Of a stretch of 62,871 bases of DNA, positions 4,353 through 54,337 are shown piece after piece. The notes below the pieces were generated by a model. It was not told the DNA's origin and made no database searches. It worked only from the letters and a program-made list of their open reading frames with translations. The translations under genes and the position numbers were made by a program. Source of the stretch: an uncultured bacterium (GTDB lineage Bacteria; Schekmanbacteria; GWA2-38-11; J061). Numbering within the stretch: position 1 is the first letter of the stretch; every line of letters begins with the position of its first letter. The DNA lies in the NCBI GenBank assembly GCA_964549305.1, contig CAZJVM010000006.1:10201-73071 (forward strand), written 5' to 3'.

Positions 4353-5372
4353 TTGTTTTTAAATAAACTTGCTTCCACATTAATTCAAACTCCTCAGAAT
4401 TCCGCTGAAGTAGCCAAAAGACTCTTTCAGGGGATTTCGCAGGAAAATATTTTTGAAGGCAAAATCGAACAAGTTTTGTCAAATGACAAAGCAATTGTTT
4501 CGACGGATAAAGGTCGTTTCGTGGCACAGATAAATACAAAAGTGCTTGAAGGCGAATCTATTCTTTTTGAAGGCAAATTCAATAAAGACAGCATAATTTT
4601 AAAAATTCTTGACCGGACATTTGCCGAAAACAAAGACAACCTTTTAAGAATATCCAATTTTCTTGAACAAGTTTCCGGTAACGTAATGCAATCGTCCAAA
4701 GACAATCAAGTCAATGACATCCTGAAACTAATTTTTAATATGAACACCGATTTAAAAAATATGTCCGACACAAACAAAAACAACCTCAGTGCGGATTTTG
4801 TAAAGCTTTTTACAAATATTTTTAAACATCCCGATGAAATATTAAGTACACTAATAAAAAAAATTAACAGCCATTACCTTCAAAAAAACAAACAATCAGC
4901 GTTTCTATCGGACAAAAAATTAAAACAATTGCTTTCAATGTTTTTAGCATCGGGAGCAAAAAACTATCTTTCATCTCTCTGCGATAATCCCGTATACAGT
5001 TATTATATTCCGCTTTTTTGGCAAAACGAGAAAACCGAAATCTATATCACTCTTTTTGGTGAAAATAACAAAAGACAAAAGGGACCCGAAAAAGGAATTA
5101 ATGCAGTCATCCAAATAGCGCTTTCCGAAAAAAGGATAGTATCGTTTTCAGTGCATCTGTTAAAGGGAAAAGTATCCTACCATATTTACTCAAATGACAA
5201 GAGTTTTAACGATTTTTTAAAAGATCATCAATTAACCCTGAATAAAAACATTAATGAAACAGGATTGGAAATTGAAAGCGAATCAATCAACACCTTCAAA
5301 GACGAAAAGGGATTTATAAAAGAAGAAATAATCAATAAACTCTCTTCCAAAAGAGTTAGAGTGGTTGCATAG
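4353..5372 (+). CDS. FliK-like hook-length control protein
   Basis: Directly upstream of standalone FlhB-C gene; C-terminal beta/alpha pattern like FliK-C; start codon uncertain. Confidence 0.55.
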   Translation: MFLNKLASTLIQTPQNSAEVAKRLFQGISQENIFEGKIEQVLSNDKAIVSTDKGRFVAQINTKVLEGESILFEGKFNKDSIILKILDRTFAENKDNLLRISNFLEQVSGNVMQSSKDNQVNDILKLIFNMNTDLKNMSDTNKNNLSADFVKLFTNIFKHPDEILSTLIKKINSHYLQKNKQSAFLSDKKLKQLLSMFLASGAKNYLSSLCDNPVYSYYIPLFWQNEKTEIYITLFGENNKRQKGPEKGINAVIQIALSEKRIVSFSVHLLKGKVSYHIYSNDKSFNDFLKDHQLTLNKNINETGLEIESESINTFKDEKGFIKEEIINKLSSKRVRVVA

Positions 5373-5382
5373 GGAATATACA

Positions 5383-5676
5383 ATGAACAAAAAAGCTGTT
5401 GCCCTAAAATATGAGCCAAAAACACACGATACGCCCTTTGTTTCCGCTAAAGGGATAGGCGTCCTTGCGGAAATGCTTCTGAAAAAGGCAAAAGAAAATC
5501 AGGTGCCTGTAAAAAATGACCCTGTTTTAACTGATATTTTGATGACTATTGATTTAGGAAATTGCATTCCGGAAGAATTATTCAAAGTCGTTGCCGAAAT
5601 CCTTGCTTTCATTTACACTCAAAATTCCAAATATGAAGAATTAATAAATAATGATTCCTTTCCTGATAAACTCTAA
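5383..5676 (+). CDS. Standalone FlhB C-terminal domain protein (EscU/YscU/HrcU family)
   Basis: KAVALKY...PFVSAKGIG...IPEELFKVVAEILAFIY. Confidence 0.9.
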   Translation: MNKKAVALKYEPKTHDTPFVSAKGIGVLAEMLLKKAKENQVPVKNDPVLTDILMTIDLGNCIPEELFKVVAEILAFIYTQNSKYEELINNDSFPDKL

Positions 5677-47758: not shown

Positions 47759-48460
47759 ATGGCAGATCTGAAAGATATTCATTCGATTATTATTGAAGAT
47801 GTAAAGAAAAAGTTCGAGCTTCAGCGAGTTTCTCTTACACATCCCTTCCCCGAAAGGCCTGCAAGGTCATTGGGACTTATAAAAATAGACGGTGACGTTT
47901 TCACTTCGGAAAAATTTTCAAGAATAGTCTGTCTGCGGATAAGTCTTCCCTTTTATTTCTGCGTGCGCTCCACATTTATGAGGCCGAAAATGGAATATGA
48001 TCTTCCCATATTTTCCGGAGAAGTGGTTCTCACGGGCAAAAAAAGGATGGTAATGATAGATATGCACAGAACCGGTGAAGAGGAAAGACCGCAAGATGCT
48101 CCCTTATTCGAAAAGCTTATTAACATCAGGGATAAATACCCTACGCTTATGGAAAATACCACGAAAAATGTGGGCGATGAGATTCAAAATGTTTTCTCCA
48201 GGGCAGTTTGTCAGGTAAAAATCACGGAAAGTCTCGACAATGATGCAACAAATATCTTACGGGAATACCTCGCAGTCTTCACGGATATGGTGGGAAACGC
48301 CGAACCACTCGCGGGAGATGCCCTTTCCGATGCTTCCGAAAAATACAAGGCCTATCTTAAAACAGTCGTTGAGCACGACCCAGGCGTGAAGGGATACAAA
48401 ATGCTCTTCGGCGAAGAAGGGGGAGTGAAACGCTCGATGGAAATGTTCTTCGACGCGTAG
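47759..48460 (+). CDS. Ferredoxin-dependent bilin reductase (FDBR)/RCCR-like protein
   Basis: P..EYDLPIF, MIDMH, VFS, EYLAVF, YLKTVVEHDPG...LFGEE...MFF; GGAGG RBS. Confidence 0.7.
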   Translation: MADLKDIHSIIIEDVKKKFELQRVSLTHPFPERPARSLGLIKIDGDVFTSEKFSRIVCLRISLPFYFCVRSTFMRPKMEYDLPIFSGEVVLTGKKRMVMIDMHRTGEEERPQDAPLFEKLINIRDKYPTLMENTTKNVGDEIQNVFSRAVCQVKITESLDNDATNILREYLAVFTDMVGNAEPLAGDALSDASEKYKAYLKTVVEHDPGVKGYKMLFGEEGGVKRSMEMFFDA

Positions 48461-48702
48461 ACTCACAATACTTTAAACCGTTGTAATGCCTCTGGTTATT
48501 TTGCCCTTTATGTGCCGGGAAACAGATATCCTGAGACAAAAAACGCGCCATACGCACTGTTTCTTTTGAAAACAGACTATTGACTTTATACTTCCACTAT
48601 TAGTATATAGGCATCAGGATTACAGGTGCGCTCGATCATTAAATAGATGATGATTCTTGAAAAATGTTTCAATAGTTAATAGTGTTTAAGAAAGGAATAA
48701 AA

Positions 48703-48909
48703 ATGCTTGATGAAAATGTTAAAGTAATTGATGCAATAAGAATCGCAATAGAAAGAGAAAAAAAAGCCGTCGAATTTTATTCGCAGGCAGCGGAAATATC
48801 GAAAGACCCCGGGGCAAAAAAGATGTTCGAGCATCTTTTGAAAGAAGAGCAGAGGCATGTGAGGATTCTCGAAGAAGAGTATGACAAGAATATAATGACA
48901 GAAATGTAA
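48703..48909 (+). CDS. Small rubrerythrin/ferritin-like protein (half domain)
   Basis: AIEREKKAVEFY...MFEHLLKEEQRH. Confidence 0.8.
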   Translation: MLDENVKVIDAIRIAIEREKKAVEFYSQAAEISKDPGAKKMFEHLLKEEQRHVRILEEEYDKNIMTEM

Positions 48910-48967
48910 ATATCTGAAAAATAAAAGTTTTTTGTTTTTAATTTTAAACACTTCAACGGAGAGAAAA

Positions 48968-49189
48968 ATGATAGAAAAAGTAAAGGATGTTATAGAAAAA
49001 ATCAGACCCAGACTTCAGATGGACGGTGGCGATATTGAGCTTGTGGGTATTGAAGATAATGTGGTGAAGGTAAAACTTCAGGGTGCCTGCAACGGATGCC
49101 CGGGCGCGCAGATGACGCTCAAGATGGGCGTGGAAAGAATGATAAAGGAAGAAATTCCTGAAATCAAAGAAGTTGTTTCCGTAGAGTAA
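48968..49189 (+). CDS. Nfu/NifU C-terminal Fe-S carrier
   Basis: IRPRLQMDGGDIEL...LQGACNGCP...TLKMGVE. Confidence 0.92.
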   Translation: MIEKVKDVIEKIRPRLQMDGGDIELVGIEDNVVKVKLQGACNGCPGAQMTLKMGVERMIKEEIPEIKEVVSVE

Positions 49190-49224
49190 AACATACTAAC
49201 CGTCCGGAAGGAATTTGCTGAAAG

Positions 49225-49647
49225 TTGACAGAGGAAAAAGACAGTTTCTTCATTATATCCCACGCAAGCAGTTTTGACCGTCTTTATCAGACGGTTACCA
49301 TAGCGGTTACTGCCGCGTCTTTGGGAAATGAGGTGTATGTTATCCTCTTTTTTGATGCCCTGAAAAAGTTCGTACAGGGAAATATGGACAAAGATGATTT
49401 GTCCGGCGACATGGGAGAAGAGAAAGAGGAAGTATACAAGCGGATGAAGTCAATGAATCCTCTCAGTATGCAGGAGATGATTGACACCGTCAAACCCCTC
49501 GGCAACCTTAAGTTTATTGCCTGTAGCGCAAATGTTGAGTTTATGGGACTTGACAAGAACGAAGTGCTGAAAAAAGTCGATGAGATTATGGGACTTCCCA
49601 CAATCTTGAAAATGATGAAAGACTCGAAAAACCAGCTTTATATTTGA
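49225..49647 (+). CDS. DsrE/DsrE2-like sulfur carrier
   Basis: AVTAASLGNEVYVILFF...KFIACSAN...VDEIMG; TTG start. Confidence 0.75.
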   Translation: MTEEKDSFFIISHASSFDRLYQTVTIAVTAASLGNEVYVILFFDALKKFVQGNMDKDDLSGDMGEEKEEVYKRMKSMNPLSMQEMIDTVKPLGNLKFIACSANVEFMGLDKNEVLKKVDEIMGLPTILKMMKDSKNQLYI

Positions 49648-49664
49648 AAAAGAGGAAAAGCGGT

Positions 49665-50849
49665 ATGGGAAAAAATATTTATATGGATTATGCTTCGACA
49701 ACTCCTCAGCTTAAGGAGGTGACAGAAGCGATGATGCCTTTTTTCGAAGAAAATTTCGGCAATCCGCAAAATCTTCACTCATTCGGAGAATCTCCCAAAA
49801 ATGCCATAGATGAAGCAAGGGCAAAGGTAGCCGGAATGATTGGTGCCGACCCGTCGGAAGTTTATTTCACTTCATCGGGTACGGAAAGCAACAACACGGC
49901 AATCAAGGGCATTGCCGCGGCAAGCGGGAAGAAGGGAAAACACATAATAACAACCGAGATCGAGCACCACTCCGTACATCACAGTTTGAGGACTCTCGAG
50001 AAACAGGGATATGAAGCAACTTATATTCCCGTTGACCGCCACGGGATGGTAAATCCCGAAGATGTAAAAAGCGCTCTGAGGCCGGATACGATTCTTGTTT
50101 CAGTTACACACGCATCGAACGAAATAGGAACAATCGAGCCAATAAGCGAAATCGCGAATCTTTTGAAGGAGAGCAAAACTCCCTTCCACACAGATGCCGT
50201 GCAGACAGCGGGAACGATTCCCGTCGATGTTAACAAATTGGGAGCTGATCTTCTGAGTATTTCGGCACATCAGTTTTACGGACCGAAGGGAGTAGGGGCG
50301 CTTTACATAAGAAACGGGACGAGAATTATTCCCTTTATCGACGGAGGAATTCAGGAAAACGGAAGGCGCGCGGGGACTGAAAATGTACCGGGCATCGTAG
50401 GCATGGGAAAGGCCTGCGAAATAGCCGCAAAGGATATGGATTCGAGAATAAAAAAGATAACTGAGCTGAGGAAAAAACTCATCGAAGACCTTACGGCGGC
50501 AATTCCCCATTCCTTCCTTAACGGACATCCTGAAAACAGGCTTCCCGGAAACGCAAACATTTCCTTCGAATATATCGAAGGGGAATCGATGCTTCTCTTT
50601 CTCAATATGCAGGGAGTTGCCACATCGAGCGGTTCGGCGTGTACATCGAGGGCGCTTAAGGCATCGCACGTACTCACGGCAATGGGAATACCTCCTGAAA
50701 TCGCGCAGGGCTCCATGCTTTTCAGTTTAGGCATATATAACAGTGAAGAAGACGTAAAAAAGGTCTGCGAAGTGCTGCCGCCCATAGTAGAACGCCTCAG
50801 GCAGATGTCCCCTCTTTATGAGGAAGCGCAGAAGGCGGGGAAAATATAG
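49665..50849 (+). CDS. iscS: Cysteine desulfurase IscS/NifS
   Basis: YMDYASTT, FTSSGTESNN, HTDAVQ, SAHQFYGPKG, SSGSACTS. Confidence 0.93.
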   Translation: MGKNIYMDYASTTPQLKEVTEAMMPFFEENFGNPQNLHSFGESPKNAIDEARAKVAGMIGADPSEVYFTSSGTESNNTAIKGIAAASGKKGKHIITTEIEHHSVHHSLRTLEKQGYEATYIPVDRHGMVNPEDVKSALRPDTILVSVTHASNEIGTIEPISEIANLLKESKTPFHTDAVQTAGTIPVDVNKLGADLLSISAHQFYGPKGVGALYIRNGTRIIPFIDGGIQENGRRAGTENVPGIVGMGKACEIAAKDMDSRIKKITELRKKLIEDLTAAIPHSFLNGHPENRLPGNANISFEYIEGESMLLFLNMQGVATSSGSACTSRALKASHVLTAMGIPPEIAQGSMLFSLGIYNSEEDVKKVCEVLPPIVERLRQMSPLYEEAQKAGKI

Positions 50850-50875
50850 AATCATAAAATAAAAAGGAGCTCATA

Positions 50876-51262
50876 ATGGAAAAATACAGCGATAAAGTTA
50901 TGGACCATTTCATGAATCCGAGAAACGTCGGGGAGCTTGAAAACGCCGACGGAGTAGGACAGGTAGGAAACGCTTCTTGCGGAGACATAATGAAGCTGTA
51001 CATAAAGGTCGAAGACGGAAAAATCGTTGATTGCAAATTCAAGACATTCGGTTGCGGCGCGGCAATTGCCACAAGCTCGATGGTAACGGAAATGGTAGTG
51101 GGCAAAACGATTGACGAAGCAATGGCTATAACGAAACAGGCGGTAGCCGATGCCCTTGACGGGCTTCCTCCGCAAAAGATGCACTGTTCGAATCTTGCGG
51201 CGGACGCTTTGAAAGCCGCAATAGAGGAATATCAGAAGAAGGGCGAAGCAAAAGGAGAATGA
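50876..51262 (+). CDS. iscU: Fe-S scaffold IscU/NifU-N
   Basis: YSDKVMDHFMNPRNVG, CGDIM, FKTFGCGAAIA, KMHCSNLA. Confidence 0.95.
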   Translation: MEKYSDKVMDHFMNPRNVGELENADGVGQVGNASCGDIMKLYIKVEDGKIVDCKFKTFGCGAAIATSSMVTEMVVGKTIDEAMAITKQAVADALDGLPPQKMHCSNLAADALKAAIEEYQKKGEAKGE

Positions 51263-51264
51263 CA

Positions 51265-51498
51265 ATGGAAGCAGATGAAGTACTCGATGCGGTTGGACTT
51301 TACTGTCCCATGCCGATTTTACTCACGACTAAGAAAATTAAAGAGCTTAAAAAGGGCCAGATACTTGAAGTCATCGCCGATGACGAAGGAATAGTGAAGG
51401 ATATGCCTTCGTGGTGCAAGACAACAGGAAATGAATTCGTAAAAATCGAAAAAGACGACGACCAGTTTCACGTCTTCGTCAAGAAGATGGCTGAATAA
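51265..51498 (+). CDS. tusA: TusA/SirA sulfur-transfer protein
   Basis: LDAVGLYCPMP...LEVIADD...DMPSWC. Confidence 0.88.
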   Translation: MEADEVLDAVGLYCPMPILLTTKKIKELKKGQILEVIADDEGIVKDMPSWCKTTGNEFVKIEKDDDQFHVFVKKMAE

Positions 51499-51528
51499 CA
51501 TCTTCAATATTGCTTTCTGAAAATCACT

Positions 51529-51560
51529 GTGACAGGCAATTTGCCTGTCACGCTTTTTTT
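51529..51560 (+). terminator. Rho-independent terminator after isc/tusA operon
   Basis: GTGACAGGC-AATTT-GCCTGTCAC followed by GC and a T-tract. Confidence 0.8.
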
Positions 51561-51568
51561 ATTTCAAA

Positions 51569-52753
51569 TTGAACATTAAAAAAGAAGATTGCTATCCCGT
51601 ATTTGAAGAAGGCGTTTATTTAAAAATTCTCGAAGAGCCCTGCGTCTACAACACCGAAAACGACGAGCTTTATGAAATTAACGACGAGGCAGTGGAATTT
51701 TTGGAAAAATGCAACGGCCTAAATCCACTTTCAGCGCTCTCCTATGACGAGGAATTCCTCGCATACTGCATTGATGAAAAACTTTTATGCCTTAAACAGG
51801 AAAAGAAGAAATTTTTTCAGCCCCAACCTCTGAAAAAACCGCCGTTTCCCTCCCTGAGATATCTCGAACTTCAGGTTACCGACAGGTGCAACCTTGCCTG
51901 CAGGCACTGCTATCTTGGAAAATCAAAGAAGCGGGATCTCGACGCAGGGACGATGGAATCGGTTTTCAAGCAGTTTGAAGTGATGCAGGGACTCAGAATG
52001 ATAATCTCGGGAGGCGAACCTCTTATGCATCCCGAATTTTGGAAAATCAATGAAATGCTAAAAGGGCGAAGTTTCAGGTCAATACTTCTTACAAACGGCA
52101 CTCTCCTGACAAAAGACAACATCGGAACAATCAATGTAGGGGAATATCAGATAAGCGTTGACGGTTTGCAGGAATCACATGACGCATTCAGGGGGAAGGG
52201 GACGTTCAAAAAAGCGATGGATGCTGTAGAGATGCTCATAAAAAACGGCAAAGACGTTTCTGTGGGCACAATGGTCAACAGATACAACCGGAACGATTTT
52301 CCCGAAATGGAAGAACTTTTCACAACGCTTGGAGTCAGGGAGTGGTCAGTGGATATACCCGTCGAGATGGGTTATGCCCGGGGACAGTCCGCCTCAATAT
52401 TTTTGCCTGCAAACGAGGCGTCGGCATATCTCCGATTCGGATTCGGAGGAGGACTCTACAAGTCTTCCGGAGATTATGTGTGCGGCGCGCACCTTTGCGC
52501 GGTAACGCCTTCCGGCGATGTATGCAAATGCGGCTTTTACGCCGATTCCCCTTCGGGAAACATAAAGGATAAAACTCTCAAAACTTGCTGGGAAAAAATA
52601 GAGAAGGGTAAACTCGGCGACCTTGAATGCGGGAGATGCGAATATCTATCGGAATGCAGGGGCGGATGTCGTTACAGGGCTTTTATGGAAGGCACAGAAA
52701 AGGGCGTGGATTCGGTAAAATGCTTTTTTTTCGGTGTAAAGAAATCTTTGTAA
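51569..52753 (+). CDS. Radical SAM/SPASM peptide maturase with N-terminal RRE (PqqD-like) domain
   Basis: VYNTENDELYEINDEAVEFLEKCNG (RRE-like); CNLACRHC; SGGEP; SPASM CGA...CKC...CGRCEYLSECRGGC...C; start codon uncertain (TTG). Confidence 0.87.
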   Translation: MNIKKEDCYPVFEEGVYLKILEEPCVYNTENDELYEINDEAVEFLEKCNGLNPLSALSYDEEFLAYCIDEKLLCLKQEKKKFFQPQPLKKPPFPSLRYLELQVTDRCNLACRHCYLGKSKKRDLDAGTMESVFKQFEVMQGLRMIISGGEPLMHPEFWKINEMLKGRSFRSILLTNGTLLTKDNIGTINVGEYQISVDGLQESHDAFRGKGTFKKAMDAVEMLIKNGKDVSVGTMVNRYNRNDFPEMEELFTTLGVREWSVDIPVEMGYARGQSASIFLPANEASAYLRFGFGGGLYKSSGDYVCGAHLCAVTPSGDVCKCGFYADSPSGNIKDKTLKTCWEKIEKGKLGDLECGRCEYLSECRGGCRYRAFMEGTEKGVDSVKCFFFGVKKSL

Positions 52754-52828
52754 AACAAGGCGTGTCACTGTAAAATTCAAAATATTTACAATTTTTTTAA
52801 AAAATTTCTTGAAATTAAACTTGTCTTT

Positions 52829-52834
52829 TATAAT
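52829..52834 (+). promoter_or_regulatory. Candidate sigma70 -10 box for small peptide gene
   Basis: Exact TATAAT about 48 nt before GTG; -35 is poor. Confidence 0.35.
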
Positions 52835-52881
52835 GATAGATAGTGTTACTCCTAACATAAAAGTTGAAAGGAGGTGATATC

Positions 52882-52944
52882 GTGAAAATCAGAAAGGTAT
52901 CAAAATCAACATCATCAACCTGCAAATGTAAATCATCCTGCTAA
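52882..52944 (+). CDS. Putative RiPP precursor peptide, 20 aa, MKIRKVSKSTSSTCKCKSSC (absent from ORF track)
   Basis: Extended SD AAAGGAGGTGAT just before GTG; three Cys in last 7 residues; adjacent to RRE-rSAM/SPASM; followed by terminator. Confidence 0.8.
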   Translation: MKIRKVSKSTSSTCKCKSSC

Positions 52945-52959
52945 CAGCACTCAAATTCT

Positions 52960-53000
52960 AAAGGGAAAGCGTTTTCATTTTCGCTTTCCCTTTCTTTTTT
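52960..53000 (+). terminator. Rho-independent terminator after peptide gene
   Basis: AAAGGGAAAGCG-N10-CGCTTTCCCTTT 12-bp perfect stem plus T-tract. Confidence 0.85.
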
Positions 53001-54337
53001 TAAAGGGCGGAAATTTTACAGAGGAAGTCCTCTATCATAAGCTGTGAATTGAAATTGTAGTTGAGTTTTCCCGAAAGACTGCAGGAGAGAAAAAATATCT
53101 TTTCAAGCCTCTTTTCATCGTTTTCGCTTCTTGGCATCAATACTTCGAGCTCTTTTTCGTCAAGAGACAGTCCCTCGCGCGCGCCCTTTGCATAAAAGAT
53201 GATGTCCCTGATGATACGCCTGAAACAATTCAGGGAAACTCTTACTCCTTCAGGGTCTGCGCCCTGGGAAAGAAAACCGTATTCTCCCGAAAGAGATGAA
53301 AGAGAAAATTCTCTTTTCCTGAAATCTTTTGCCAGAATCCGGGCTGCAAATTTTTTCACTTCACCGGTATCAAAGGAAAGCATATTCAGGGCAGTGCCAG
53401 GACTTCCTGCAGAAAAGGGATAAACTTCTTCGATAAAATCTTTTCCCGCAGGAAGAATCTTTTCCATTATCTCGAAAAAATCCTCTTTTGCAAGAAGGGG
53501 AAATCCTATGGTTTCGCACCTTGACCTTATCGTTTGAAGAAGTCCCGAGGGTTTTGAGGTAATCAAAACAAGAACGGAATTTGCAGGGGGTTCCTCGAGA
53601 GTTTTCAAAAGCGCGTCGGCCGCCTCTTCGGTGATATTATGGGCATTGTCTATGATAAAAACTTTTCTTCTGCCGGAATTGGGTTTCAGGTAGATGTCTC
53701 TGATTATTCCCCTTATTCCCCTGTTTCCGATGGGAAGTCTCTCCTTATAGGAATAAATATACATCGACACCAACTGCCTTAAAAGGGAAGACGCAAGCAA
53801 TGATTCTCTGACTAATTTTTCACAATACTTCTCCACCGCCTGATTGTCTATGCAGAAAGAATTGTCTGTTTTGTCCTTAGTAAAAAGAATCTCCTGATTC
53901 AATATTACTGAATCGGCGCAGGCGTCATAATCATTCAATCTTTCGCCGAGAAAGATTAAACCACTCTCTTCCATTAATTTCAGAGCATCCATATATTCGC
54001 GTAAAGACAAAGCACCGGACTTATCTTTTTTTGACACTGCATCAATCATTTCCCGTCGCCCGATCCAAAGCTTTTCTGACACATTGCGATATACTCTTAT
54101 GTCAGGATGAAAGGTGTAGGGAGTATGCAGTTGCGTGCAGTTTTCACATTTTCCGCAGGGTTTCATCCCCTTGTCGTCAAGGCAATTCAGCGCCTTCGCG
54201 AATACCGTTGCCGTAAGCTTTTTCCCTACCCCCGAAGGTCCCTGAAAAATAAATGAATGGGGAAGTGTTTTCTTCCCAAGGGCATGTCCCAGCATTGAAA
54301 CCGCCTTTTCGTGACCCCTTATTTTACTGAAATCCAT
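53000..54337 (-). CDS. holB: DNA polymerase III delta' subunit with large insertion
   Basis: HSFIFQGPSGVGKK, PCGKCENC, HPDI, ALLKTLEEPP, TIRSRC. Confidence 0.9.
   Translation of the reverse strand: MDFSKIRGHEKAVSMLGHALGKKTLPHSFIFQGPSGVGKKLTATVFAKALNCLDDKGMKPCGKCENCTQLHTPYTFHPDIRVYRNVSEKLWIGRREMIDAVSKKDKSGALSLREYMDALKLMEESGLIFLGERLNDYDACADSVILNQEILFTKDKTDNSFCIDNQAVEKYCEKLVRESLLASSLLRQLVSMYIYSYKERLPIGNRGIRGIIRDIYLKPNSGRRKVFIIDNAHNITEEAADALLKTLEEPPANSVLVLITSKPSGLLQTIRSRCETIGFPLLAKEDFFEIMEKILPAGKDFIEEVYPFSAGSPGTALNMLSFDTGEVKKFAARILAKDFRKREFSLSSLSGEYGFLSQGADPEGVRVSLNCFRRIIRDIIFYAKGAREGLSLDEKELEVLMPRSENDEKRLEKIFFLSCSLSGKLNYNFNSQLMIEDFLCKISAL

Follow-up and report, generated by a model that had tools for sequence, protein, structure and literature searches.

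The window analysed here, i.e., the whole stretch of 62,871 nt from contig CAZJVM010000006.1 of an uncultured bacterium of the Schekmanbacteria, carries a gene for a radical SAM/SPASM enzyme followed by a 20-codon, cysteine-rich ORF that lies below the cut-offs of gene callers. The locus raises the question of whether this ORF is a gene at all and, if so, whether its product is the substrate of the enzyme encoded next to it. Based on the comparative and structural analyses presented below, the ORF is likely to be a translated gene, and its product the cognate substrate of the adjacent RRE/radical SAM/SPASM enzyme, a reading to which a probability of about 0.75 is assigned. The features of the locus are listed in Table 1.

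Table 1. Features of the enzyme-peptide locus (positions are those of the window).
Feature	Position	Strand	Details
Terminator-like hairpin with T run, 3' of tusA	51528..51552	+	11-pair stem with 6 GC pairs, then CTTTTTTTAT
RRE/radical SAM/SPASM enzyme	51569..52753	+	TTG start, 394 aa
RRE-like domain, aa 1-92	51569..51844	+	Four beta strands, then three helices (fold level)
Radical SAM cluster motif C107-x3-C111-x2-C114	51887..51910	+	Invariant in 60/60 homologs
SPASM domain	52481..52723	+	7 Cys, each invariant in 60/60 homologs
TATAAT hexamer, putative internal promoter	52829..52834	+	Overlaps scanned site TTGAAA-17-AATGAT
Extended Shine-Dalgarno (SD) sequence	52867..52878	+	AAAGGAGGTGAT
20-aa peptide gene	52882..52944	+	GTG start; 128 nt downstream of enzyme; encodes MKIRKVSKSTSSTCKCKSSC
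Perfect 12-bp hairpin with T run	52960..53001		Between convergent peptide gene and holB

The enzyme is of the RRE/radical SAM/SPASM architecture. The CxxxCxxC motif and the full SPASM cysteine array that a preliminary description of this DNA had attributed to the 394-aa product are all present in the window and do not vary among the homologs (Table 1). The array consists of C305-x15-C321 (with G316-x4-C321), C354-x2-C357-x5-C363-x3-C367 and, finally, C385, and two further cysteines of this region, C310 and C340, are found in 50 and 59 of the 60 homologs, respectively. The Pfam Radical_SAM model matches the enzyme with 74 bits (cut-off, 29.5), and the SPASM model remains below its threshold (17.0 vs 21.5 bits). 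None of the curated NCBIfam cut-offs is reached: the best score is 108 bits against a cut-off of 515, those of the best-matching models ranging from 400 to 650 bits. The top matches are the heme-pathway enzymes NirJ and AhbD (108 bits each) and not peptide maturases; the models of the StsB family (sactisynthase) and of the PapB-family ranthipeptide maturases score 73 (cut-off, 625 bits) and 57 (cut-off, 340), respectively. At E ≤ 1e-30, the enzyme family comprises 2063 cluster representatives.

The AF2 model of the enzyme (pLDDT, 93.6) was compared with solved structures using VIA-align. The best match is SkfB (Z, 26.9; rmsd, 5.1; 332 aligned residues; identity, 16%), followed by SuiB (Z, 25.7; rmsd, 4.2; 360 aligned residues, covering model residues 9-391), CteB (Z, 23.7; rmsd, 3.0; 279 aligned residues; identity, 24%) and anSME (Z, 23.5; rmsd, 3.3; 293 aligned residues). 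By profile, the closest solved sequence is again SkfB (E-value, 6.2e-23); the SPASM enzyme PqqE, which the model also matches in structure, was found in the PDB with an E-value of 1.8e-15.

The N-terminal segment had been described as PqqD/RRE-like, of which the RRE-like fold, but not a match to the PqqD model, is borne out. In the AF2 enzyme model, strands at residues 16-20, 24-28 and 33-36 lie ahead of the helices, and the conserved strand D32-E-L-Y35-E-[IL] is the predicted leader-docking edge of the domain. When the N-terminal domain was folded alone (pLDDT, 73), its Foldseek list was headed by RRE domains, the best match being TbiB1 (TM, 0.60; E-value, 0.067), with lasso B1, SuiB, PqqD, CteB, ThcOx, LynD/TruD, PbtF and MccB among the others. 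Since no Foldseek match to the lone domain has an E-value of 0.001 or below, and the Pfam PqqD model gives no match at E ≤ 10 to the N-terminal 95 aa, the RRE assignment applies at the level of the fold only.

The GTG-start ORF of 20 codons, the extended SD, the TATAAT hexamer upstream and the 12-bp terminator hairpin noted earlier were all found again. The hairpin begins 16 nt past the peptide stop, has arms at 52960-52971 and 52982-52993 with a 10-nt loop, and is followed by CTTTTTTT; its predicted folding energy of -17.7 kcal/mol (z, -4.8) is matched by none of 200 shuffled sequences. The convergent gene holB ends at 53000, and, by its position between the two genes, the hairpin may serve both and is a probable bidirectional terminator. 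Another hairpin, on the tusA side, ends 17 nt 5' of the TTG start of the enzyme, which may be transcribed at a low level by read-through past this structure. The number of promoter-like sites in the region (three) is not above the expectation from shuffled sequences (2.1 ± 1.4), and the separate, strong expression suggested earlier for the peptide gene is therefore conjectural; among the sequencing runs listed for the locus, none is of RNA. Over positions 51450-53050, no Rfam family was detected at the gathering score. A longer, 26-aa reading from a TTG codon at 52864 was rejected, as its start falls inside the SD and conservation is limited to the 20-aa form.

A conserved short Cys-rich ORF near the enzyme homologs had been named as the check on the proposed pairing, and such an ORF was found. 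In total, an ORF with a strong SD and a length of exactly 20 codons was found in 65 of the 84 homolog loci, preceded in most cases by a GAAAGGAGGTG-like sequence; these loci comprise 61 of the 80 enzyme loci on genome contigs, the window and three relatives. The consensus of the peptides is M-x-I-[KR]-K-[VI]-x-[KR]-[KR]-x-[SA]-x-T-C-K-C-K-x-S-C-stop. I3 and S19, invariant in 65 of 65 peptides, and K5, conserved in 64, were not forced by the search pattern; K15 is likewise invariant. All of the 61 genome hits stop exactly at ...SC-stop, though the pattern allowed zero to three extra residues. The variability of the codons is 0.16, 0.17 and 0.47 at positions 1, 2 and 3, respectively, and the degenerate CKCKxSC-stop pattern occurs once in the window as opposed to none in 100 shuffles. 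These sequence comparisons indicate that the 20-aa ORF is a real gene under protein-level selection. The opposite explanation, in which an unrelated radical SAM gene is followed by a chance frame or by a non-coding element such as an sRNA or a stretch of a terminator, could draw on the position of the ORF below gene-caller cut-offs and on the absence of five exact peptide sequences (0/5) from a collection of 15 billion proteins. It is nevertheless hardly credible in view of the conservation at the amino acid level with synonymous third-position variation, the constant length, start, SD and stop in 65 loci and a further 73 from metagenomes, the lack of an Rfam family at gathering score, and a reversed control pattern that was found in none of the 101 and 41 genomes surveyed below.

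Enzyme and peptide form a real and widespread pair in anaerobic bacteria, as evidenced by adjacency, a reciprocal peptide-first search and co-occurrence even of unlinked genes, which agrees with the enzyme/precursor pairing put forward in the preliminary description. The peptide gene lies directly downstream of the enzyme gene except at one locus (L075), where it is upstream, and in the window's own lineage it is present at four of four loci. A peptide-first scan of metagenomes, with a pattern that included the Thr codon and so left out Leu13 variants, gave 73 genuine 20-aa ORFs among 80 listed loci. Of these loci, 64 were informative (at least 1400 nt of upstream flank), and in 49 of the 64 the enzyme is encoded directly upstream on the same strand, ending 13-158 nt away. 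No nearby partner was found at 17 of the 80 enzyme loci and 13 of the 64 informative peptide loci; four of five genomes with the enzyme and no adjacent peptide gene harbor one stand-alone copy of the latter. Among 41 relatives, the peptide pattern occurs once each in exactly the five genomes that have an enzyme ortholog at E ≤ 2.4e-84, and it is absent in the other 36. Both genes occur in 43 of the 101 genomes surveyed from a single class; one genome has the peptide only, none has the enzyme only, and 57 have neither. Both genes are single copy in the 43 genomes, being adjacent in 24 and unlinked in 19. The host range includes Nitrospirota, Thermodesulfobacteriota and Schekmanbacteria-like lineages.

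Docking of the leader on the RRE, a co-fold check proposed earlier, is supported: the enzyme-peptide co-fold has an ipSAE of 0.81, and the best of three controls, an unrelated 20-mer, reaches 0.54. In the calibration, which has no chain shorter than 30 residues, the mark used was attained by 58 of the 80 solved complexes but by only 2 of the 110 mismatched pairs; alignments made for this analysis were used for the co-fold. Contact agreement among the runs is at least 43%, and the partner pLDDT at least 57. In the co-fold, peptide residues 1-10 are placed along beta-3 of the RRE, in contact with residues 25-26, 33-38, 40-44 and 59-70 of the enzyme; Cys14 comes near residues 291-298, C321 and C367, and the contacts of lowest error set the invariant I3 against the conserved D32/Y35 strand. 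This model suggests that the peptide is bound by the enzyme, though, because RRE-leader complexes such as SuiB-SuiA have been solved, the pass may reflect likeness only.

If so, the basic N-terminal half (M-x-I-K-K-V-x-K-K, about residues 1-10) would be a very short leader that extends the sheet of the RRE domain by one strand at its beta-3 edge (D-E-L-Y-E-L/I), with a Cys-rich core at about residues 11-20. Once docked, the peptide would be threaded with its invariant core, T-C-K-C-K-x-S-C, into the active site, between the auxiliary clusters of the SPASM domain and the SAM cluster, where the 5'-deoxyadenosyl radical would take a hydrogen atom from a core residue and the peptide would be modified. 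The most likely product would carry at least one intramolecular thioether of the sactionine or ranthionine type, from Cys thiols to Lys, Ser or Thr carbons; thioether chemistry is given here slightly less than an even chance. The neighbors of the pair in the window are housekeeping genes (tusA, nifU and nifS upstream; holB, holA and nadE downstream), and hence no protease or exporter is adjacent, as had been observed before. Considering this, together with the single-copy, often unlinked and vertically conserved genes, the product would probably remain intracellular as a modified 20-mer that keeps its leader, and may have a housekeeping role in anaerobes together with a small Cys-rich protein that co-occurs with the pair.

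This third component makes it probable that the system is not minimal, contrary to what had been supposed. A Cys-rich protein of ~100-130 aa is present in 41 of the 101 genomes, all 41 of which are peptide-positive, and is mostly encoded on other contigs than the enzyme; in the window's genome it is likewise encoded away from the enzyme-peptide locus, at C63:958-1353. Its motif adjoins the enzyme in 43 of the 84 loci, and at L075 the enzyme carries the Cys-rich domain as an N-terminal fusion, with the peptide encoded by a separate gene just upstream.

The relation of the pair to characterized systems bears on both chemistry and role. Similar to the SCIFF ranthipeptide systems (CteA/CteB and Tte1186a/Tte1186; background in PMC8326336), a short Cys-rich peptide with a basic N-terminus and a C-K-x-S-C-like element is encoded beside an RRE/radical SAM/SPASM enzyme, each of the two systems is widespread and vertically conserved within one group of anaerobes, a protease or exporter is not obligatory, and CteB is a strong structural match. 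The SCIFF echo heard in the basic start and CKSSC of the peptide thus holds as an analogy, whereas membership does not: the peptide has 20 residues and three Cys instead of the ~45 residues and six Cys of the SCIFF peptide model and no NCBIfam match at E ≤ 1, and SCIFF maturase models are not among the best 25 of 81 enzyme matches, where no cut-off is reached. The hosts also differ, SCIFF being a system of Clostridia, and in the present system the genes are often unlinked and accompanied by the Cys-rich protein. The SkfA/SkfB system provides the closest solved enzyme by both profile and structure, and SkfB installs a thioether in a peptide that contains Cys; the identity of the enzymes is only 16%, SkfA is the precursor of a secreted toxin encoded with export and immunity genes, and SkfB has a twitch domain and an N-terminal [2Fe-2S] domain instead of a full SPASM domain. 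SuiB, the streptide enzyme acting on SuiA, has the same three-domain RRE, radical SAM and SPASM architecture, and its leader, like those of TbiB1-TbiA and PqqD-PqqA, docks as a strand on RRE beta-3, as is predicted here for a leader that differs from those of such complexes in being highly basic and only ~10 residues long. Aromatic residues are lacking in the core, which makes a crosslink of the Lys-Trp type impossible. PQQ (PqqA/D/E) and mycofactocin (MftA/B/C) share with the pair a very short conserved precursor with critical C-terminal residues, a radical SAM/SPASM enzyme with an RRE, an intracellular product and vertically inherited chromosomal genes, but not the core (Glu/Tyr or Val-Tyr in those systems) or the co-occurring peptidase and further tailoring genes. 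The enzyme scores 90.3 bits with the MftC equivalog TIGR03962 (cut-off, 265), and the peptide ends in Ser-Cys rather than Val-Tyr. Taken together, the system is a new family within the known RRE/radical SAM/SPASM peptide-maturation class, SCIFF-like in lifestyle.

Three alternatives accept the pair and differ in what it does. The enzyme might modify the peptide by chemistry other than thioether formation, e.g., anSME-like conversion of Ser19 or a Cys to formylglycine, epimerisation, MftC-like oxidative decarboxylation at the C-terminus, or a C-C or C-N crosslink to Lys. The presence of anSME among the best structural matches, the invariance of S19 and K15 and the fixed terminal Cys as the last residue are in line with this proposal. 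Moreover, C310, present in 50 of the 60 homologs, could complete an anSME-like ligation of Aux I, and, since Aux I may then be fully Cys-ligated, the CteB-style argument for a thioether, in which a substrate Cys ligates Aux I, is weakened. On the other hand, SkfB is the closest solved sequence, the match to the anSME equivalog TIGR03942 (63.8 bits) falls short of its cut-off of 349, and the peptide lacks the anSME substrate motif, C/S-x-P/A-x-R. To our knowledge, every characterized radical SAM/SPASM or twitch enzyme acting on Cys-rich leader-bearing peptides (SkfB, CteB, AlbA, PapB) makes thioethers. The view that such enzymes form thioethers is based in part on the review PMC8326336. Other chemistry is considered rather unlikely.

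The peptide might, alternatively, be no substrate but an unmodified basic metal- or Fe-S-binding peptide, an accessory or a regulator, with the Cys-rich protein modified by the enzyme in the manner of CrpC and CrpA. In Methanococcus voltae, according to PMC13692751, ranthionine crosslinks are introduced into the Cys-rich protein CrpA, and an RRE/SPASM radical SAM enzyme is associated with it, which sets a precedent for SPASM enzymes crosslinking Cys-rich proteins. The Cys-rich protein of the present system co-occurs as tightly as the peptide, it frequently adjoins the enzyme, and an unrelated 20-mer still gave 0.54 in the co-fold; the Cys-rich protein could be the real or a second substrate. 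CrpA/CrpC nonetheless differs in that the Cys-rich protein here is mostly unlinked and once fused, the 20-aa peptide being the tighter partner: the enzyme adjoins the peptide more often than the Cys-rich protein. The fusion at L075, where the peptide is still a separate gene, is easier to reconcile with an accessory domain than with a substrate, and the RRE beta-3 strand and the N-terminal residues of the peptide, the most conserved parts of each, touch in the co-fold; this explanation appears quite improbable. Another possibility, which would leave the pair as such unchanged, is that CKCKxSC gives rise, in the PQQ/mycofactocin manner, to a cofactor or to a carrier of the redox, metal or sulfur kind that is used by or loaded onto the Cys-rich protein. 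It would account for a peptide extremely conserved throughout with its C-terminal Cys position fixed, for single-copy and often unlinked genes with a vertical-looking distribution and perfect co-occurrence, for the missing adjacent protease or exporter, and for a third protein confined to peptide-positive genomes. Fe-S and sulfur-relay neighbors in two lineages (nifS/nifU/tusA and nifS/nifU), as well as rubrerythrin, SOD and nitroreductase neighbors in Thermodesulfovibrionales-type loci, point in the same direction. These neighbors vary by clade, however, and synteny within a clade reflects shared ancestry; no peptidase, oxidase or other tailoring enzyme co-occurs consistently, no candidate cofactor-dependent enzyme was identified, and the MftC score is far below its cut-off (90 vs 265 bits). 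That the modified 20-mer serves anaerobic Nitrospirota, Thermodesulfobacteriota and allied lineages as an intracellular cofactor or carrier for redox, metal or sulfur chemistry, acting with the Cys-rich protein, is regarded as unlikely.

The enzyme-peptide pair is apparently undescribed, and the novelty claimed for it holds against the models searched: the peptide is matched by none of the NCBIfam and Pfam models, and the enzyme stays under every curated NCBIfam cut-off. No NCBIfam family was found for the 20-aa and 26-aa readings at E ≤ 1, nor for two orthologous peptides at E ≤ 0.1. The C-terminal motif strings of the peptide occur in no paper of the full-text literature searched, and among the papers listed for radical SAM/SPASM precursor peptides in Nitrospirota, or for ranthipeptides in Nitrospirota, Desulfobacterota and Thermodesulfovibrio, none deals with the pair. 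The main text of PMC10288494, which covers ~15,000 RiPP radical SAM enzymes, does not mention these taxa; its supplements or the RadicalSAM.org clusters might list the family. The pair is not a one-off, as the single-copy peptide is present in 44 of 101 genomes sampled from a class of anaerobes that are abundant in the environment. Its gene is invisible to gene callers. If modified by the enzyme, the peptide, with its leader of ~10 residues, would be among the smallest leader-dependent radical SAM substrates and, being so small, a practical minimal system in which to study RRE recognition and SPASM chemistry; the system would then represent a SCIFF-like 'housekeeping RiPP' beyond Clostridia. 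Were the product a cofactor, this would be the third conserved peptide-derived cofactor system after PQQ and mycofactocin, with the shortest known leader-dependent precursor. The three-way co-occurrence with the Cys-rich protein offers a testable handle on the purpose of conserved intracellular modified peptides, SCIFF included.

As regards the wider gene neighborhood, a cupin-like neighbor was rejected as a core part of the system, since it gives weak Pfam Cupin_2 matches below the cut-off at some loci and, in a search with one protein query, was not found in the window's genome. The genes nifS, nifU and tusA lie beside the enzyme at the four loci of the window's lineage, and nifS and nifU at four Syntrophaceae-type loci; as they are seen beside it at these loci only, a dedicated link of these genes to the pair is no more than a hint. 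The Thermodesulfovibrionales-type loci are adjoined by genes for rubrerythrin, SOD and nitroreductase.

In architecture, the enzyme and the 20-aa peptide correspond to a peptide-maturation system of the RRE/rSAM/SPASM class. Examination of the window confirmed the preliminary description of a 394-aa enzyme with a CxxxCxxC motif and a SPASM cysteine array, and the GTG-start ORF of the peptide, its Shine–Dalgarno sequence, TATAAT and the 12-bp hairpin were all found where they had been placed. The hairpin (−17.7 kcal/mol; z −4.8) was equalled by none of 200 shuffles and, being situated between the convergent peptide gene and holB, may act as a terminator for both. No obvious Shine–Dalgarno sequence precedes the TTG start of the enzyme, unlike that of the peptide gene. 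Promoter-like sites in the region are no commoner than expected by chance (3 versus 2.1 ± 1.4 in shuffles). Based on the hairpin 3' of tusA and the contrast between no obvious and a near-perfect Shine–Dalgarno sequence, the signals suggest that the enzyme would be expressed at a low level and the peptide at a high one. A run of Fe–S and sulfur-relay genes spans 47759–51498 of the window, upstream of the enzyme.

Coordinates of the features discussed (positions without a prefix refer to the window; L, loci; G, genomes, G000 being the window's own; C, contigs)
Feature	Position	Strand	Remarks
Fe_bilin_red-like protein	47759-48460		Fe-S/sulfur-relay run upstream of enzyme
Short rubrerythrin-like protein	48682-48909		same run
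NifU C-terminal-like protein	48932-49189		same run
DsrE-like protein	49225-49647		same run
NifS	49644-50849		same run
NifU N-terminal scaffold	50876-51262		same run
TusA	51259-51498		same run
Terminator-like hairpin 3' of tusA	51528-51552		ends 17 nt before enzyme TTG start
Enzyme ORF	51569-52753	+	TTG start, 394 aa
TATAAT upstream of peptide ORF	52829-52834	+	
Shine–Dalgarno of peptide ORF	52867-52878	+	AAAGGAGGTGAT; near-perfect
Peptide ORF	52882-52944	+	GTG start; product MKIRKVSKSTSSTCKCKSSC; 128 nt downstream of enzyme ORF
Perfect 12-bp hairpin, 10-nt loop, T run	starts 16 nt past peptide stop		
Cys-rich protein	L105:958-1353		G000, contig C63
Cys-rich protein	L026:3590-3934	-	
Cys-rich protein	L036:3545-3739	+	
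Cys-rich protein fused to enzyme	L075:3587-5152	+	
Cupin-like protein	L026:3238-3582	-	
Cupin-like protein fused with Cys-rich protein	L065:3236-3925	-	
Cupin-like gene	L075 about 5160-5502	+	
ATP-grasp gene	L036:5330-6238	+	follows peptide gene
HD_5 protein	L103:1-1335		ahead of stand-alone peptide gene
HD_5 protein	L104:22-1440		ahead of stand-alone peptide gene
18-aa peptide variant of G022	L227:1468-1524		contig C9; MKKVKKTKKGLCKCKSSC

In three relatives, the enzyme orthologs (68, 57 and 51% identity) are each directly followed by MKIRK[VI]xKxxxxTCKCK[SA]SC, and the nifS-nifU-tusA synteny upstream is kept. In G003, the most distant of the three, the genes beyond the peptide differ from those of the window; therefore, the peptide stays with the enzyme. 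A scan of species-representative genomes yielded 80 further loci, mostly from Nitrospirota/Thermodesulfovibrionales and Thermodesulfobacteriota/Syntrophaceae MAGs, with enzymes about 41–49% identical. The peptide ORF is present in 61 of them, directly downstream of the enzyme save in locus L075, where it lies upstream; 17 loci lack it, and two end before it could be judged. The short Cys-rich ORF anticipated next to enzyme homologs was accordingly recovered, at exactly 20 codons, in 65 of all 84 loci, and a GAAAGGAGGTG-like Shine–Dalgarno sequence is visible ahead of most of the 65. The peptide consensus reads M-x-I-[KR]-K-[VI]-x-[KR]-[KR]-x-[SA]-x-T-C-K-C-K-[SAGN]-S-C. The invariance of C14, K15, C16 and C20 carries no weight, because these residues were set by the search pattern; at positions free in the pattern, I3 and S19 occur in 65/65 peptides, and K5 and K17 in 64/65. 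Although the 80-locus search tolerated up to three residues past the last cysteine, all 61 peptides end at Cys-stop, and the position of the C-terminal Cys20 is therefore conserved. No two of the 65 DNA sequences are the same, and variability at codon positions 1, 2 and 3 is 0.16, 0.17 and 0.47, respectively. None of five exact peptide sequences was found in a collection of 15 billion proteins, and no NCBIfam model matches the peptide. A Syntrophaceae-like pair on a 1354-bp contig labelled as a Nanoarchaeota MAG (L081) is probably a binning error and not an archaeal occurrence; another locus (L092) bears a Chloroflexota MAG label.

A peptide-first scan of metagenome contigs with a degenerate pattern for T-C-K-C-K-x-S-C-stop gave, among the matches listed, 80 loci: 73 genuine 20-aa ORFs, six chance matches or ORFs with different starts, and one cut by a contig end. 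Among these listed genuine loci, nine have too little flank, which leaves 64 with an upstream stretch of 1400 nt or more; the enzyme ends 13–158 nt upstream on the same strand in 49 of the 64, is nearby in another arrangement in two, and is lacking in 13. Five genomes have the enzyme without an adjacent peptide, and four of these contain exactly one copy of the pattern elsewhere, in each case as an isolated 20-aa ORF preceded by a Shine–Dalgarno sequence of its own. The stand-alone genes of G042 and G044 directly follow a gene for an HD-domain (HD_5) protein of about 450–470 aa. Among 41 genomes related to the window, the pattern occurs once each in G000–G003 and G022, exactly the five with an enzyme ortholog at E ≤ 2.4 × 10−84; the remaining 36 lack it, and the control pattern (a reversed version) has no match in any of the 41. 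The enzyme of G022 is 40% identical, and the peptide of this genome, encoded on a different contig, is a variant of 18 aa that lacks the otherwise invariant Ile3.

In the class of G041 (101 genomes), 43 genomes have both peptide and enzyme, 57 neither, one (G107) the peptide only and none the enzyme only, counts that overstate the statistical weight because related genomes are not independent. The peptide pattern (44/101; control pattern, 0/101) is always single-copy, and the enzyme gives one match at E ≤ 10−60 in each of its 43 genomes. In 24 of the 43, the peptide gene neighbours that of the enzyme, and in the remaining 19 they sit on separate contigs or a long way apart. Co-occurrence outlasting the loss of linkage is strong evidence that enzyme and peptide are functionally tied. 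Adjacency, the peptide-first scan and unlinked co-occurrence all agree with the proposed enzyme–precursor pairing.

The system had been called minimal, a term to be dropped because a third component, a Cys-rich protein of ~100–130 aa, co-occurs with the pair. At E ≤ 10−5, it is detected in 41 of the 101 genomes, all of them peptide-positive (G107 included), and in 0/57 genomes negative for peptide and enzyme; its gene is mostly unlinked in this class. It lies beside the enzyme in 43 of the 84 loci, divergent in Thermodesulfovibrionales-type and directly upstream in Syntrophaceae-type loci. The protein has the motif C-x3-C-x-[FY]-Y-[KR]-P-x-K ... C-x-G-[FY], followed in the second half by CxxC-x5/6-C...CGG. 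It matches no Pfam or NCBIfam family, and its only ESM Atlas matches are clusters from the same phyla annotated 'hypothetical protein'. The L075 enzyme carries a two-repeat version as an N-terminal fusion (521-aa protein); the peptide gene lies a short way upstream of it, and a cupin-like gene downstream. A 131-aa member with 10 cysteines is encoded on another contig of the window's genome. In Thermodesulfovibrionales-type loci, a cupin-like small protein (Pfam Cupin_2, 18–20 bits, below the cut-off) adjoins the Cys-rich protein, to which it is fused in L065; one query did not find it in the window's genome.

The enzyme contains the SAM-cluster motif C107-x3-C111-x2-C114 and a C-terminal array of C305-x15-C321 (G316-x4-C321), C354-x2-C357-x5-C363-x3-C367 and C385. 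The three SAM-cluster and seven SPASM cysteines, as well as C67 in the RRE, are each present in 60/60 homologs, C340 in 59 and C310 in 50. Only Radical_SAM passes in Pfam (74 bits); SPASM scores 17.0 bits, under the 21.5-bit cut-off. Of the NCBIfam families, 81 match the enzyme, none near its curated cut-off, the best being NirJ (108 bits versus 515), AhbD (108 versus 500), ScmE (100 versus 400), WgkB (98 versus 650), MftC (90 versus 265), anSME (64 versus 349) and PapB (57 versus 340). Among homologs with a named source, the nearest (69% and 58% identity) are labelled Candidatus Schekmanbacteria. An AlphaFold2 model built with 60 homologs (pLDDT 93.6, pTM 0.92) ranks peptide-modifying rSAM enzymes at the top in Foldseek and VIA-align: SkfB (Z 26.9, rmsd 5.1, 332 aligned), SuiB (Z 25.7, rmsd 4.2, 360 aligned, over model residues 9–391 and including the SuiB RRE), CteB (Z 23.7, rmsd 3.0, 279 aligned, 24% identity) and anSME (Z 23.5, rmsd 3.3, 293 aligned). 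In a profile search of PDB sequences, SkfB is closest (E-value, 6.2 × 10−23), followed by BlsE, PqqE and CteB. The N-terminal 87 aa modelled alone (pLDDT 73) form four strands and then three helices; no Foldseek match reaches E ≤ 0.001, and RRE domains head the list, with TbiB1 (TM 0.60, E-value 0.067), lasso-peptide B1, the SuiB N-terminus, PqqD, CteB, ThcOx, LynD/TruD, PbtF and MccB. The RRE assignment of the preliminary description is thus supported by the models at fold level and not at HMM level, Pfam PqqD finding no match in the N-terminal 95 aa at E ≤ 10.

The peptide docks on the RRE strand in the co-fold, with a score of 0.81 versus 0.54 for the best of three controls (an unrelated 20-mer); the mark passed is also reached by 58/80 solved complexes and 2/110 mismatched pairs, in a calibration without chains under 30 residues and with author-built alignments for the co-fold, and because RRE–leader complexes have already been solved, passing may reflect resemblance to these instead of binding. 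The runs share at least 43% of contacts, with a partner pLDDT of at least 57. In the canonical RRE mode, peptide residues 1–10 are modelled along the conserved strand D-E-L-Y-E-I (enzyme residues 33–38) and pack on helices 40–44 and 59–70; the lowest-error contacts are those of the invariant Ile3, and Cys14 is placed near residues 291–298 and near the SPASM cysteines Cys321 and Cys367. Judging from these contacts, residues 1–10 would serve as a minimal leader on the RRE and residues 11–20 as the core. Since SkfB and CteB, the closest characterised enzymes acting on Cys-rich leader peptides, form thioethers, the modification may, with a probability somewhat below one half (about 0.45), consist of thioether bridges from Cys14, Cys16 or Cys20 to a carbon of K15, K17, S19 or T13. 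Ser/Cys oxidation or other chemistry could take place instead, because the extra Cys310 could complete Aux I ligation, as in anSME.

The closest analogue in lifestyle is SCIFF, whose peptides are, according to one paper (PMC8326336), conserved across Clostridia and argued to have a role other than antibiosis. By NCBIfam models, the system falls outside SCIFF, mycofactocin and PQQ, and the enzyme outside PapB-type ranthipeptide, sactipeptide StsB and anSME families. A literature search, motif strings included, returned no account of the peptide or the pair, although the enzyme cluster may be listed in some large survey; the main text of one compendium does not mention the carrier taxa. Set apart from known ones by curated models, the enzyme and its predicted precursor are new families, which supports the core claim of the preliminary description, an enzyme with an unannotated precursor new to curated families. 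The system is distinguished by the 20-aa precursor, by chromosomal, single-copy, often unlinked genes, and by the third, uncharacterised Cys-rich partner.

The window's neighbours (nifS, nifU and tusA upstream; holB, holA and nadE downstream) include no protease or exporter, as had been noted, and none travels with the pair among the loci examined. The rest of the neighbourhood differs from clade to clade and comprises genes for 2-oxoacid:ferredoxin oxidoreductase, rubrerythrin, SOD and nitroreductase; a TPR protein, ispE and prs; or nifS/nifU and an ATP-grasp gene. In four Syntrophaceae-type loci, nifS/nifU also flank the pair, arranged differently. The ATP-grasp gene follows the peptide gene in L036 (Pfam ATP-grasp_3, 31.9 bits) and in 13 other Syntrophaceae-type loci, where it possibly provides a clade-specific tailoring or ligation step.
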